A program made the translations under genes and the position numbers. This document shows, in pieces, positions 37,312 through 43,254 of a stretch of 64,000 bases of DNA. Source of the DNA: Rikenellaceae bacterium (GTDB lineage: Bacteria; Bacteroidota; Bacteroidia; Bacteroidales; UBA932); NCBI GenBank assembly GCA_900771005.1, contig CAAGMI010000060.1, positions 43,427-107,426 on the forward strand, in the 5' to 3' direction. The notes beneath the pieces were generated by a model. That model saw only the letters and a list, made by a program, of their open reading frames with translations, did no database searches and was not told the origin of the DNA. Position 1 is the stretch's first letter. Each line of letters starts with the position of its first letter.

Positions 37312-40047
37312 TTATTCGGCAGTGCTCATGACAAACATATATTCCTTCTCGAAAATGCCCGGGAAAAGAAATTTCTTTTCCTCTCGACCGAAATTGACAA
37401 TGATATATTTTTCATCAATTGCCTTGACTGTTCCCTTGCCAAGGCTCTTATGAAACACCTCATCTTCTGCCTGTAATCGCTCCCAAGGCTTGACTTCAAT
37501 CTCCGGCTCATGGATTTCCCCGGCCGGAGTTTTCTTTATTTCTTCTTCCGGAGAAGTGTCGATCACTGTATCCCAGCCACCGACTTTTGTGTTGGTATGA
37601 GTGTTGATTCCTGTATACTCCAGAGATGCATCTTCATAACGTTTGAACTTGTAAACTGCATCGTTCATGAGTTCGCTGTTGAACACATTCAGACTAACCA
37701 GCAGGCTGAAGTCATTCAAGGACAGGCCTGTCACTTTACGAAAAAGGTCCGGCTCCAACTGAGTTATGACATCCTTCAGACAATACTCCCGATAATCCGT
37801 GAGGTACATAAATACAGGTATTCTGGTCGCAAATTTTATAAGTTTCTCCTGAATTTCCTTTCTCTTGCTCTTGAACTCTTTCTCCTCTTGCGTCAACTCC
37901 TTCTTCTCTTTCGGAGTCATATCTTCAGGATTCTTATTCTTCTTGACATTTTTGACATGCTCGGACTTATTGATTATGGTCTCTATGTCACTATTCAGGC
38001 TCCGGAATCCCTCGATATTCATCAGAGCCTGCATAGCCTCCGGATTGTTCATCAGACGTTTGAGCGTGGCATTGTCCACGTTCACAAGTAGCGCACTCTC
38101 CCATCGACGGGCCAGAAGTGTTGCTGTAGTGCCCTGCATTGCCATATCAAGGACCTCAGCAGCACTGATTTCCTTCATTGATGTACCGTCGAACGCAAGG
38201 ATAGGGAGAAACTTTATGAATTCCTCAACTTTCTTCTCCGGATTGGACTCCCTGACATTAAGCTGACAACTGTATTCATCAACCAACTTCAGCGCCCTGT
38301 TCGGAGCAAAATCGAAAACATAGCAAAGCGGCTTCAGTATTATTTCTTCCCCGTTCTCGTCCTTCATTGTCCAAGGTGACTGCACGCGGAACGCAGCTTG
38401 AAAATATGTTTCAGGGCTTGTCGAATTTCGAAGCATCAATATTCCAGTCCATGGCTTGACTGTTACTCCCGTAGATAGTTTTCCGCAAGATAATGTAATG
38501 GTCTTCGTTTTCTGGGGATCACCCATTGCATTGTAAACCGGATCCACGGCTTTTGCCCCCATTCCAGCCTCATTACCGGCAGCAACTATTATTTCATATT
38601 CGTCAAAGAAACGGTTCTGTCTCTTACGGAGCAACCTCCCCATTGCCTGACAGGATGCTACGCTAGGCATAAACCAATAGGTATGCTGCAGATAACTGAG
38701 CAGACGGGCATCGGAAAACGGCATAGGCGGTTTCTCTGTGCCTAATTTCAGATCCGTAACGATATTCTCAATATACGCGCCGCGAATGAGATCTATCCAT
38801 TTCTGCACATATTCCTCGTGGAGGAATCCCGTCTCGTCCGCACGGAAGAATTCGTTGAGGTCGAATTCGTCATACTCTCCCTGCTCGGCGATTTCTCTTA
38901 TCTGATCCGGTAGCTTATAAGTGAGCATCACCATCTTCGGAAGTGCCGCATAGGGATTGTACCCTCCCTCGAATGCCTCCTTTGCAGCCTGCTCGTCACT
39001 GTATGTCCAGTTGTAAATCTGCTCCTCTATAAACTCCCCCGAGCTTATAGCCCGAAAAGGAGTCCCCGAGAGATAAAGATAGGCTTTCGTACGGAGAGGC
39101 ATCAGTCCTTCGTCATACATCTCACGAGCCTCGAACTCTCTGGTGTTGTCGGAGTCTTCTGCAAGAATGTCACCGGCCTCCTGCGCTTTCAGCATCGCGG
39201 GGTCCTTCTTGTCATAGTAATTCTTTGCGTTTTTGCCCCACGCACCATAGTGATATTCATCAAGAACTATACAATCCCACTCTATTGTTTGAATCCACTC
39301 GTTGGTGGCCTTGATGCCTCCTATTGAATTGGTCCCCAGCACATCCTGAAACGAGGCGAAGCACACAAAAGGTTTGCGCTCGTTGACATAGTTGAATTCA
39401 CGGTCATCCTGCTTCTGGCAGAATTGCCATCCATCGAAATCCTTGTGGCTGTTGATGTCTTCTTCCCATGCCGTCTTCACCGCCGGTTTGAAAGTAAGGA
39501 CAAGAAGTTTGGTCCACCCCATCTTTTTTGCCAACTGATATGTTGTGAATGTCTTGCCGAAGCGCATCTTGGCATTCCATAGGAAATGAGGCGTAAGGCC
39601 TCTGTTATCGGGATCATTGATAAAGGACGTAAAATATGCTGCAGTCTTCTCGACGGCGAGTCTCTGCTCAGGACGCATCTTGAAAGACTGTGTGCGCTGA
39701 GTCATTGTGGTGCGCCCCTCCCGAACGCTCTCAACTGCTCGCTCGACTGTCTTCTCGCTGCAACGGAACCATTCGCCCTCAGGATTGGGCACGTGATCAG
39801 CGCGCAGTACTCTGTGTACCGCATGATCGTCGAATACGCTGCCGTCAGGGCGCATCGCTTCTCGCACCAGCAATGTTTTATGCTTTACACCGGATGTCCC
39901 CAGCTGCTCTTTGATACGTTCTTCAACATCTCTGACGGTGAATCCCACTTTGATGAGACCCTCATGGTCAGGCACGCCCACCAGCTCATAGGCGTAAATA
40001 GTCGGCTCCTGTTCAACCCTGTGCCGTAAGAAATTTTTCGCTGCCAT
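37312..40047 (-). CDS. T5orf172 (GIY-YIG-like) domain fused to SF2/Snf2-like DExH ATPase-helicase, long C-terminal extension
   Basis: 911 aa. N-terminal IYAYELVG...GLIKVGFTVRDVEERIKEQ = T5orf172/MUG113 signature. Walker A MRFGKTFTT. DEYH box (CIVLDEYHYG). Motif III LSGTP. Motif VI-like QAAFRVQS. ~250-aa C-terminal region of unknown function. Confidence 0.75.
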   Translation of the reverse strand: MAAKNFLRHRVEQEPTIYAYELVGVPDHEGLIKVGFTVRDVEERIKEQLGTSGVKHKTLLVREAMRPDGSVFDDHAVHRVLRADHVPNPEGEWFRCSEKTVERAVESVREGRTTMTQRTQSFKMRPEQRLAVEKTAAYFTSFINDPDNRGLTPHFLWNAKMRFGKTFTTYQLAKKMGWTKLLVLTFKPAVKTAWEEDINSHKDFDGWQFCQKQDDREFNYVNERKPFVCFASFQDVLGTNSIGGIKATNEWIQTIEWDCIVLDEYHYGAWGKNAKNYYDKKDPAMLKAQEAGDILAEDSDNTREFEAREMYDEGLMPLRTKAYLYLSGTPFRAISSGEFIEEQIYNWTYSDEQAAKEAFEGGYNPYAALPKMVMLTYKLPDQIREIAEQGEYDEFDLNEFFRADETGFLHEEYVQKWIDLIRGAYIENIVTDLKLGTEKPPMPFSDARLLSYLQHTYWFMPSVASCQAMGRLLRKRQNRFFDEYEIIVAAGNEAGMGAKAVDPVYNAMGDPQKTKTITLSCGKLSTGVTVKPWTGILMLRNSTSPETYFQAAFRVQSPWTMKDENGEEIILKPLCYVFDFAPNRALKLVDEYSCQLNVRESNPEKKVEEFIKFLPILAFDGTSMKEISAAEVLDMAMQGTTATLLARRWESALLVNVDNATLKRLMNNPEAMQALMNIEGFRSLNSDIETIINKSEHVKNVKKNKNPEDMTPKEKKELTQEEKEFKSKRKEIQEKLIKFATRIPVFMYLTDYREYCLKDVITQLEPDLFRKVTGLSLNDFSLLVSLNVFNSELMNDAVYKFKRYEDASLEYTGINTHTNTKVGGWDTVIDTSPEEEIKKTPAGEIHEPEIEVKPWERLQAEDEVFHKSLGKGTVKAIDEKYIIVNFGREEKKFLFPGIFEKEYMFVMSTAE

Positions 40048-40083
40048 AAATCATAAATTATGGCGCGCAACTTAGAAGCGAAG

Positions 40084-40362
40084 CTATTCCTTGAAGTATG
40101 GGGTGAAATCCGATGCGTTCTCCATTCTGAAACCCCGGATATCCCTTACTGACTCTCTGAACCAGTCAAAATCGTTCAAATGCTGTATCGCTTTGAACAA
40201 ATTCAGCATGTCGTCACTAAGAGTCACATATGTGCTTCCCTGGATCCACCAGAAGCCGTCATCATTCAGGCTTCTTTTAATTTTGAAATAAGCCGAATTG
40301 TAAGATTCGCCACAGCACCTCCTCAAATCCGACACCACCAAATCAAAACTGATCGCGAACAT
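40084..40362 (-). CDS. vapD: VapD-family protein (Cas2-like endoribonuclease fold)
   Basis: 92 aa. MFAISFDL...GESYNSAYFKIK...GFWWIQGSTYV...WFRESVRDIRGFR...SDFT matches the VapD family along its entire length. Confidence 0.8.
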   Translation of the reverse strand: MFAISFDLVVSDLRRCCGESYNSAYFKIKRSLNDDGFWWIQGSTYVTLSDDMLNLFKAIQHLNDFDWFRESVRDIRGFRMENASDFTPYFKE

Positions 40363-40372
40363 TGGCCTGTAT

Positions 40373-42172: not shown

Positions 42173-42818
42173 TGTTTATTTTAAGGAAATGAACTGGCTT
42201 GAACGTTTCTGCAGGGAGGTCTGAAAAAAGGTCATCTCCCGCATCTTCCCCCACGAGATATGAAAACTCGTAATCCCTCCTGTTCACCTTTCCCTCACCG
42301 ATGAAACTCCATTCTGTTATGCGTATCCACTCGTCCGGAGCATCCACGCGCTTGTAAGTGAGCGCATCCCCGACTATTATGTTTTTGCTGAGGATGTAGC
42401 GGACGCTCTCGATGCAGTCGTCCTTGCACTTGCTCTTGAAAAGAGCCTGATATTGCTGTATAAAATAATTGAGCAGCCTTTCGCGACAGGCTTCGGCATT
42501 GTCCTGAAGCAATTCTATACCGTAGATGCTGCTCACAGAAAGTACGGCATTCTGCTCATACTGAAGCTGCGTGTACTGCTTCGCCCTGGCCCGAGCCTCA
42601 CATATCGCGAGTTTGCGACGCAATATCTCTATCAGGAAATTCCCGTCTCCGCAGGCCGGTTCCAGAAAACGCGAGTCAAGACGCTCCGTTTCCTGTTTGA
42701 CAAGATCCAGCATCGCATTGACCTCACGTTCATTGGTGAAAACCTCCCCGTGGGCCGCGACGCGCTCTTTTGATTTGATCTGACGGGGCACAGCTCCGCC
42801 AGAGGACAATCCGCCCAT
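42153..42818 (-). CDS. methyltransferase N-terminal-like protein (SAM-binding motif I present, catalytic motif degenerate, no TRD)
   Basis: 221 aa. [18 protein letters not shown] and [12 protein letters not shown] parallel TaqI-type motifs X/I. NPPY position reads [10 protein letters not shown]. Overlaps the 503-aa MTase gene by 20 nt in another frame. Confidence 0.55.
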
Positions 42819-43165
42819 TGCGCATTTGGCTTGTGCGCTGAACCGTCATCGGTACGAAGCCCTAGGGCACAAAAAAGGCGCGGATGAAACTCATCCGTGC
42901 CCCGCGGCCCTAGGAAGCCTCGCACACCGATACAAGTCCCGCCCGCGCCAAAGCGCAGGCGTTTACTGAACTTGTCCGGTGGTGTGCAATTAAGAAATTT
43001 CCTAGGTTTCTGGGGCACCCGAACAACAGCAAACGCTGGTTAATATATGTCTATTGATCTACTGTGCTGTAAATCTTAACAAAAGTACAACTTTTTATAG
43101 TAAGCACAATATGCGACTACAAAAAAATAGCTTCAAGGCGGAACCTTAAAGCTATCGTTTATCAG

Positions 43166-43254
43166 CGGAAGGGACGAGATTCGAACTCGTGGTACAGTAT
43201 GACCCGTACGTCGGTTTAGCAAACCGGTGGTTTCAGCCACTCACCCACCCTTCC
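43166..43254 (-). tRNA. tRNA-Ser (GCT)
   Basis: GGAAGGGTGGGTGAGTGGCTGAAACCACCGGTTTGCTAAACCGACGTACGGGTCATACTGTACCACGAGTTCGAATCTCGTCCCTTCCG. Long variable arm. T-loop TTCGAAT. Anticodon GCT. Confidence 0.85.

Follow-up and report, generated by a model that had tools for sequence, protein, structure and literature searches.

A conserved three-gene cassette in a Rikenellaceae genome: a probable ATP-dependent restriction-modification system with a half-methylase subunit and a structured leader RNA

Which of the tightly packed minus-strand genes between a ClpB-like gene and a tRNA-Ser(GCT) gene of a Rikenellaceae bacterium belong together, and what do they do? The genes lie in a stretch of 64,000 nt (GenBank assembly GCA_900771005.1, contig CAAGMI010000060.1), here called the window, and all positions are numbered from its first letter. 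An initial annotation, made from the letters alone, had described five such genes beside the tRNA gene; the five open reading frames (ORFs) are found at the positions it gave, and the tRNA gene is placed there by both ARAGORN and Rfam. Our analysis separates three of the five genes, together with a leader RNA in front of them, from the rest of the island. We consider it likely that this trio is a three-component ATP-dependent restriction-modification (R-M) system, which follows the logic of the Type ISP and Type III enzymes and uses a GIY-YIG-type nuclease. The parts of the unit, in the order of transcription, are the following.

42867-43044, minus strand: candidate structured leader RNA, defined by folding z-score and covariance model
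42153-42818, minus strand: small subunit, 221 aa
40661-42172, minus strand: predicted methylase, 503 aa from a GTG start
40661-42163, minus strand: the same methylase in public gene calls, 500 aa from the ATG at 42163
37312-40047, minus strand: predicted restriction subunit, a nuclease-helicase, 911 aa

The three genes recur as a unit in distantly related bacteria. Two relatives (86% and 76% identical) lie between different flanks and in the same order of small methylase-like gene, Eco57I methylase and helicase, and the same trio is found without an insert on a Sphingopyxis plasmid. A scan of one genome per species identified 80 loci with 53–83% identity, in phyla that include Bacteroidota, Firmicutes, Proteobacteria, Actinobacteria (Collinsella), Planctomycetota, Spirochaetota, Chloroflexota, Nitrospirota, Fibrobacterota and others. 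All ORFs of the loci were compared with purpose-built hidden Markov models, and the 61 loci with more than 2.4 kb of DNA upstream of the helicase gene were counted. The methylase was kept in every one of these and the small protein in 57, with constant gene order and strand. The small gene typically overlaps the methylase start by 8–20 nt in the surveyed loci, and by 11–20 nt in the window. Conservation of the neighbourhood, which the initial annotation had proposed as a check on its five genes, is seen for the three core genes and does not extend to its VapD pair.

On Lactococcus and Enterococcus plasmids, the T5orf172 domain, the superfamily 2 (SF2) ATPase and the Eco57I methylase form a single protein of 1461 or 1446 aa, still preceded by a gene for a 230–248-aa “N-6 DNA methylase”. 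These fused forms are strong evidence for a single machine in which nuclease-helicase and methylase act together. The module is also present on 143 IMG/VR contigs; among the 49 close ones that extend far enough upstream, 47 carry both the small gene and the methylase. A more distant helicase branch (L245-L264, 31–33% identity) is found on viral contigs in the same collection. Its methylase is either shorter and encoded upstream or fused to the C-terminus, and at the threshold used the small subunit was often not detected.

The individual proteins fit such a machine. The 911-aa protein had been read from the sequence as a T5orf172-SF2 fusion and the 503-aa protein as a gamma-class adenine methylase with a target-recognition domain, and profile searches bear out both assignments. 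In the 911-aa protein, Pfam T5orf172 matches residues 17–108 with 32.1 bits (cutoff 20), MUG113 also scores above its cutoff over the same residues, and the SF2 motifs GKT, DEYH, SGTP and QAAFRVQ are intact. In an alignment of 84 homologues, the nuclease residues and SF2 motifs I, II (DEYH), III, V and VI are conserved; GKT, DEYH, SGTP, motif V and QAAFRVQ are invariant, and every one of the 84 has its motor joined to a T5orf172 domain whose GIY-YIG-type residues are intact. The architecture consists of the N-terminal T5orf172 nuclease, an SF2 ATPase of the DNA-translocase type, a helical C-region and a C-terminal beta domain of ∼55 aa. At least 8000 homologues are present in the protein collection, and where these are named, the name is “GIY-YIG nuclease family protein”. 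T5orf172 belongs to the GIY-YIG superfamily, and nuclease activity of one member, Gp88, the origin-directed nuclease of phage ICP1, has been shown experimentally (PMC8263062).

The C-terminal beta domain (residues ∼852–905, window 37330-37495) is five-stranded, confidently modelled and SH3/Tudor-like in appearance. It is seen in the aligned relatives of ∼910 aa and is missing from the 852-aa Sphingopyxis protein. No Pfam family matches the domain, and the C-terminal 63 aa gave no sequence match in the PDB.

The 503-aa protein matches Pfam Eco57I with 123 bits and contains GNPPYQ, with a lesser MmeI_Mtase match of 14.3 bits below the cutoff of 27. It is predicted to be a gamma-class N6-adenine DNA methylase that acts as modification and specificity subunit. 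Across 64 methylase homologues, NPPY, a variant motif I (FLDPxxKSGVFL) and a Cys/His cluster are conserved. Residues 286–425 are hypervariable: their median identity is 29%, compared with 59–70% elsewhere in the protein, the GC content of the stretch drops to 36–37%, and at the DNA level it is not alignable with relatives whose flanks do align. Taken together, low identity, AT-richness and unalignable DNA indicate a target-recognition region under diversifying selection. The Cys/His cluster, YCSK...HTW..GKCxYCGAS at residues ∼100–150 (window 41720-41870), forms an insert between motifs II and IV, possibly a zinc site. A phmmer search of the PDB returned no match to the methylase.

From these parts a mechanism can be proposed along the lines of Type ISP, Type III and Type I enzymes. 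The methylase would use its variable region to read a site that is short and probably asymmetric, and would mark host DNA with N6-methyladenine; the nuclease-helicase would also rely on the methylase for sequence recognition. When foreign DNA is unmodified, the nuclease-helicase would hydrolyse ATP, translocate on double-stranded DNA and cut with its T5orf172 domain. Two further steps are more speculative. The small protein may bind S-adenosylmethionine (SAM) and act as a non-catalytic partner of the methylase, be it as a pseudo-second protomer, a SAM-dependent regulatory subunit or an assembly subunit, and the leader RNA may set expression of the operon by attenuation.

How does such a system relate to known ones? 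The parts are those of the Type ISP enzymes LlaGI and LlaBIII: a nuclease, an SF2 translocase-type ATPase, a gamma N6-adenine methylase and a target-recognition region. Fused relatives of the window system occur on lactococcal and enterococcal plasmids, as do LlaGI and LlaBIII, and the N-terminal methylase parts of both enzymes are among the fold matches of the small protein. The nuclease differs, being T5orf172/MUG113 (GIY-YIG) instead of Mrr/PD-(D/E)xK, and the window enzyme is split into proteins of 911 and 500 aa, whereas Type ISP enzymes are single polypeptides; the additional half-methylase of ∼220 aa has no counterpart in them. Type ISP enzymes are further characterised by ATP-driven translocation with collision-dependent cleavage and by methylation of one strand. 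No similarity to LlaGI or LlaBIII was detected by phmmer with the helicase and the methylase, or by a helicase profile search of the PDB. The initial annotation had seen here the component set of a Type ISP enzyme with T5orf172 in place of Mrr, divided over separate polypeptides, and the single-polypeptide forms on Firmicutes plasmids agree with its view of a split version of a fused enzyme.

Type III enzymes (EcoP15I Mod/Res) share the two-gene logic of a specificity methylase and a dependent helicase-nuclease, with the methylase gene first. Type III Mod is a beta-class methylase and Res carries a C-terminal PD-(D/E)xK nuclease, in contrast to the gamma-class methylase and the N-terminal GIY-YIG-type nuclease of the window, and the Pfam and PDB searches gave no sequence match between Type III and the window proteins. 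The closest model in PADLOC is the Type IIG REase_MTase_IIG profile PDLC03626. Helicase and methylase match different parts of this 1359-position model, at positions 483–800 (E 6e-27) and 1005–1359 (E 9e-44), respectively, so that each of the split proteins covers it in part; judged from these matches, the model probably represents a fused form of the same family. The small subunit is absent from the 25 PADLOC matches listed for the model, and no experimental characterisation behind its Type IIG label was found in the literature.

DnmA(YeeA)-YeeB-YeeC clusters, such as the one of Bacillus subtilis, have the same three activities and predicted logic, namely a specificity methylase, a helicase and a GIY-YIG-type nuclease (PMC2731913, PMC9973331), and both systems occur in defence-island or mobile contexts with toxin-antitoxin neighbours. 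Compared by description, DnmA-YeeB-YeeC has a separate nuclease and helicase downstream of a large MmeI-family methylase that lacks the PD-ExK domain, whereas the window has a fused nuclease-helicase and a 500-aa Eco57I-family methylase, with a separate half-methylase in addition. Sets of this kind have been mentioned before: Morgan et al. noted in 2009 MmeI-like methylases flanked by a helicase and a GIY-YIG protein, as well as large nuclease-helicase-methylase fusions (PMC2731913), uncharacterised relatives with GIY-YIG nucleases are mentioned in work on Type ISP (PMC3553950), and methylase, helicase and GIY-YIG/T5orf172 sets appear again in PMC9973331. The gene set, which the initial annotation did not recognise as a named system, has in this sense been recognised before, given these mentions and the PADLOC match; what stands is that we found no paper characterising the T5orf172-SF2/Eco57I trio family. 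The protein system is an uncharacterised variant of ATP-dependent restriction-modification, not a categorically new system.

Several observations weigh against an active restriction system of this type. The ResIII match of the 911-aa protein (residues 122–280) scores 20.6 bits, just under the cutoff of 22.5, although its relatives score 27–59 bits, above the cutoff. The helicase has no detectable sequence similarity to solved R-M motors in phmmer and profile searches of the PDB. Its AlphaFold2 (AF2) model, built on a shallow alignment, is poor (predicted local distance difference test, pLDDT, 55) and confident only at residues 13–110 and 852–905, which makes the fold comparison uninformative: Foldseek returned only generic SF2 matches with template-modelling (TM) scores of 0.12–0.17, and no motor subfamily was assignable. 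For the trio family, we infer the methylated motif, the cleavage and the ATP dependence alike from sequence. The large methylase keeps conserved, if variant, SAM-binding motifs of its own, so that a second SAM-binding module is not obviously needed, and the role given to the small subunit is a guess. Finally, DnmA-YeeB-YeeC gave no protection when tested in B. subtilis and is regarded as a relic there; a YeeA-B-C-type homologue cited in the same work does protect Vibrio crassostreae against some phages (PMC9973331).

The B. subtilis results lead to another explanation, in which the window locus is itself an inactive relic, with an orphan epigenetic methylase and a helicase-nuclease and small protein that no longer restrict. 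Deletion of yeeB and yeeC left phage sensitivity unchanged, and dnmA had no effect on DNA uptake (PMC9973331). Decay is also seen among relatives of the window system, in the form of frameshifted methylases beside an intact helicase (L002-L004, 1396-2912) and broken helicases (L039, 9001-11967; L088, 528-3050), and a further contig, L184, retains only the last 445 nt of the helicase gene beside clpB. Such broken relatives suggest frequent inactivation and that methylase loss is tolerated. A broken methylase beside an intact helicase would be tolerable only if the nuclease needs the methylase for targeting. In the window, by contrast, the three ORFs are full length and every catalytic, ATPase and SAM motif is intact, and the island arrangement is 99% identical in two public, independent assemblies. 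Purifying selection on the family is strong, helicases from different phyla being 53–91% identical, and the target-recognition region is diversifying, which is unexpected of relics. We regard an inactive relic as improbable, and an active R-M system remains the preferred reading.

What, then, is the 221-aa protein? The initial annotation had described it as a degenerate paralog that repeats the N-terminus of the methylase and lacks NPPY. The missing NPPY stands: the position is occupied by EDAG, which is not conserved, and the protein ends ∼30 residues later. It matches only the N-terminal part of MmeI_Mtase (positions 17–120 of 259, 31.1 bits) and, likewise, only the N-terminal part of the N6_Mtase profile. 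With motif IV and the C-terminal catalytic half missing, it does not qualify as an active gamma-class methylase. Identity between the small protein and the N-half of the window methylase is only 25%, the latter being strongly conserved within its own family.

The idea of degeneracy did not survive the comparison with relatives. An exhaustive search of 1.84 billion cluster representatives returned 3351 relatives of the small protein, 338 of them at E≤1e-30, and nearly all are stand-alone proteins of 205–250 aa. Across 63 representatives, motifs X (HGEVFT), I (FLEPACGxGNFL), II (YGI[DE]) and III (NIxxGDAL) are invariant or near-invariant. The AF2 model is confident (pLDDT 90.9, predicted TM score 0.86), and its best fold matches in the PDB are the N-terminal parts of CamA, LlaGI, LlaBIII, BrxX, DrdV and HsdM, with 100–150 residues aligned at a TM score of about 0.35. 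Retention in nearly all surveyed loci, and beside the fused helicase-methylase as well, marks the protein as a conserved subunit. Judged by its motifs and its predicted fold, it is a SAM-binding half-methylase subunit and not a decayed paralog. These data also bear on the notion that the genes were brought together by accident, or that a rearrangement left the 221-aa ORF behind as a pseudogene fragment. A truncated methylase half that is so dissimilar to its neighbour might look like such a fragment, and the conservation data refute it: overlapping stop and start codons are kept along with the gene, the motifs do not vary, the gene persists beside the fused form and the predicted fold is confident. 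We give this explanation next to no weight. No paper describing the small subunit was found in the literature.

A few stand-alone, complete Eco57I-family methylases of ∼500 aa were observed among the relatives of the small protein (for example P0189, L012 276-1778, and P0178, L013 2786-4366). The N-half of P0189 is 51% identical to the small protein. In these ∼500-aa relatives, the catalytic half can be aligned to its counterpart in the window methylase (36% identity along the entire protein), and the N-half is only weakly similar to the window protein; one methylase of this type adjoins a serine recombinase. They may represent the ancestral unsplit form. In the simplest history, an ancestral methylase would have been duplicated, one copy being reduced to its SAM-binding half and the N-half of the other diverging. 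Such a duplication suggests a heteromeric methylase, made of one full and one half protomer.

Is there also a control element in front of the operon? The initial annotation had missed a conserved structure in the 346-nt spacer between the tRNA gene and the small gene. The spacer folds with a z-score of -6.05 relative to shuffled controls, and ∼190 nt of it are 74–77% identical in other Bacteroidales loci with unrelated flanks. The sequence conservation runs from the leader on to the ATG at 42818. The leader itself (∼175 nt) consists of a long stem of several helices and, behind it, a terminator-like hairpin with a U-run. We defined five helices by hand, a long-range helix and the hairpin among them. 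A covariance model, R1, matched 18 of the first 70 sources, including two Fibrobacter loci, always on the same strand and just upstream of the small gene. Scanning metagenomes for the exact pattern gave another 81 loci, 80 of which are matched by R1.

The pairing is supported by compensatory changes. In the long-range helix, CCTAGG/CCTAGG is replaced by CCTGAG/CTCAGG, CTTGGC/GCCAAG or TTTGGCG/CGCCAAA. In an alignment of 80 distinct sequences that was fitted to R1, 94.8% of the cells pair, as against at most 47% with slid partners; in this same model-fitted alignment, 23 of 39 leader pairs show compensatory changes and all eight pairs of the long-range helix covary. An unfitted alignment of nine sequences gives 91% pairing, as against at most 49% with slid partners. 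The many G-U pairs indicate that the structure forms in the sense-strand RNA. An inverted repeat or recombination site acting at the DNA level was considered and judged unlikely, since many of the pairs are G-U in just one of the two orientations and a hairpin with U-run terminates the element. Helix H1 was also compared with the Bacteroidetes -7 promoter box, and its spacing does not fit TAnnTTTG.

One part of the leader can adopt two pairings. The strand CCGGATAAGTC has two possible partners, TTATTCGG upstream of it and GACTTATC downstream; both alternative helices are kept, and in the window all three strands have changed together. A second copy of GGATAAGTC, together with a GCGCAG box, lies directly before the ATG. 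By these features the leader resembles an attenuator or a switch, which we put forward as a candidate function. In a search of Rfam 15, no family matched the leader; besides the tRNA, the matches were one on the opposite strand over the tRNA gene and a chance match far below threshold (E 0.08) at 43061-43110, just upstream of the leader. Our literature search found no paper on the leader RNA, and the pattern is absent from IMG/VR viral contigs. The leader is probably a new regulatory RNA.

The leader is not restricted to the trio. Among 56 metagenome instances with enough downstream DNA, the trio follows in only 21. The other cassettes behind the leader, in rumen and gut metagenomes, are an EcoRI-family methylase with a GmrSD_N/HNH restriction enzyme, an operon of the BREX (bacteriophage exclusion) type with a 147-aa ORF, BrxC/DUF6079 and PglX, and another Type II methylase with a downstream ORF that by eye resembles T5orf172 and gave no profile match. 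In each cassette type the first ORF starts ∼50 nt past the leader, and a search for a conserved gene upstream of the leader found none. With different cassettes behind it and nothing conserved ahead of it, the leader marks the 5′ edge of several methylation-based defence cassettes.

The link to BREX brings in a further explanation, in which the trio defends by methylation without classical cleavage, through a BREX-like block of replication or as an abortive-infection sensor, with the small protein as the sensor. The shared leader would fit, as would a non-catalytic SAM-binding subunit that is foreign to every characterised R-M type and the frequent toxin-antitoxin or abortive-infection-like cargo inside the operon (see below). 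The intact nuclease domain fused to the motor in every aligned homologue argues for cleavage instead; the BREX-specific BrxC, PglZ and BrxL are not encoded at the locus, and the PADLOC model closest to the trio is a Type IIG endonuclease-methylase. A non-cleaving mechanism seems to us a minor possibility, on a par with the relic, and we retain restriction by cleavage as the preferred reading.

A wider proposal joins the leader and the small subunit. The leader would represent a new class of cis-regulatory RNA, an attenuator built of mutually exclusive helices and a terminator that responds to a ligand or factor, and would be the common expression switch of at least four unrelated methylation-based defence cassettes of Bacteroidales and Fibrobacter. 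The small half-methylase, a regulatory subunit without catalysis, would make licensing of the nuclease-helicase depend on SAM status or on methylase assembly. We offer this joint proposal tentatively and, taken as a whole, consider it doubtful.

Which role do the remaining genes of the island play? The two ORFs between methylase and helicase, and the neighbours of the island, are as follows.

40373-40549, minus strand: small ORF upstream of the VapD gene, 58 aa
40084-40362, minus strand: VapD/Cas2-like ORF, 92 aa
43165-43254, minus strand: tRNA-Ser(GCT), found by ARAGORN and Rfam; a neighbour outside the element
35192-37309, plus strand: ClpB-like gene, convergent with the helicase gene

The intergenic gaps within the island are 36, 10 and 111 nt. 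The 92-aa protein matches NCBIfam VapD (NF041506) with 31.7 bits and E 1.5e-7, compared with an equivalog cutoff of 100, Pfam Cas2 with 18.5 bits, below the cutoff of 23.8, and the PADLOC Cas2 model with E 7e-10. By these scores it is VapD/Cas2-like at the superfamily level only, and a probable toxin-type RNase. The 58-aa ORF, the candidate for a VapX-type antitoxin, ends 10 nt upstream of the VapD gene and is always called beside it in contigs of the same species. It has no match in Pfam, NCBIfam, PADLOC or PHROGs; from its position alone, it is a putative partner or antitoxin carried as cargo.

The initial annotation had counted a VapD pair among the components of the locus. A weak VapD/Cas2-like identity stands, and membership in the system does not. 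Tight spacing, a shared strand and the constant presence of the pair in same-species contigs could be taken to mean that the five genes are a single five-component system with VapD and the 58-aa protein as integral parts. The exact VapD protein occurs on 23 contigs, and in each of the 6 places shown, as in 6 more, it lies in the same island with the same flanks, whereas VapD and the 58-aa ORF are absent from all other family loci that were compared. The distance between methylase and helicase genes is bimodal: it is at most 190 nt in ∼36 of 59 loci and 0.3–3 kb in the remaining ∼23, which carry unrelated cargo. A Pfam scan of this slot identified YhcG/DUF1016 in five loci and RhuM in two, toxin-antitoxin ORFs (HigB with helix-turn-helix antitoxins, YafQ/RelB, YoeB), AlbA_2/HATPase_c_4, nucleotidyltransferase and HEPN proteins (Apea, AbiU2), and Bro-N, GIY-YIG, PDDEXK_3 and Tn5-type transposase ORFs. 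A five-component system is very unlikely in our view. The VapD pair is a lineage-specific passenger outside the restriction system, best explained as an embedded addiction or abortive-infection module that restriction does not need.

Similar inserts have been listed between hsdR, hsdM and hsdS of Type I R-M operons (PMC9881135). DUF1016/YhcG, RhuM, GIY-YIG and HigBA inserts are common to both; the host operon in the window belongs to a different R-M family, and its cargo is the VapD-like pair. In a few loci cargo is found between the small gene and the methylase instead (L031 1744-2182, L048 6665-7370, L076 6142-7364, L084 5756-7422), with an IS200-like transposase, a GIY-YIG protein and an AlbA_2-type protein as examples. 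Translational coupling of these two genes is therefore not absolute.

How did the trio reach this site? The initial annotation had combined horizontal acquisition with a link to the tRNA gene, and the two parts fare differently. Horizontal transfer is well supported by the unrelated contexts in which related loci lie: the flanking genes of the window, its tRNA-Ser gene and the VapD pair were found in none of the other loci compared. The best explanation is that the trio forms a promoter-to-stop cassette moving between genomes, plasmids and prophages. Closeness to a tRNA is rare, as about 4 of 57 related loci show one in the 1.8 kb that precede the small gene; no direct repeat of the tRNA 3′ end or att site was found at the island borders, and the ORF list contains no integrase at the locus. 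A tRNA-targeted integrative island was rejected on these grounds, and the adjacency to the tRNA gene is incidental, not a property of the element.

At the other end, the helicase stop codon lies 2 nt from the end (37309) of the convergent ClpB-like gene. This gene encodes an AAA+ protein without an N-terminal Clp_N domain, called as 685 aa from a start at 35252 in public annotations, with a GNAT gene directly upstream; it looks like a naturally N-domain-less ClpB. A look-up of ClpB for an empty site returned a single odd contig, the above-mentioned L184, and no clean empty site. This metagenome contig matches window 34531-37755, which covers GNAT, ClpB and the short helicase remnant, with unrelated DNA on both sides of the matching stretch, and is either a strain with the island mostly deleted or an assembly chimera.

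With its homologues spread over many phyla, plasmids and prophages, the family is among the more abundant uncharacterised ATP-dependent restriction-type families, currently annotated piecemeal as “GIY-YIG nuclease family protein”, “DEAD/DEAH helicase” and “N-6 DNA methylase”. Recognition of the passenger slot explains spurious “five-gene islands” and should improve annotation. The minimal three-gene unit and its fused form are a clean target for biochemistry, and raise two questions, one on the coupling of a GIY-YIG-type nuclease to a translocase and one on the contribution of a half-methylase that binds SAM and is catalytically dead. The half-methylase and the shared leader RNA are the features most worth experiments. 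If the joint proposal for leader and small subunit is true, they would constitute an undescribed layer of control over self-toxicity in restriction systems, and a regulatory leader would bear on the long-standing question of how newly acquired restriction systems avoid killing their host. The shared leader also suggests, for Bacteroidales of gut and rumen, an exchange of defence cassettes behind one control element common to them.

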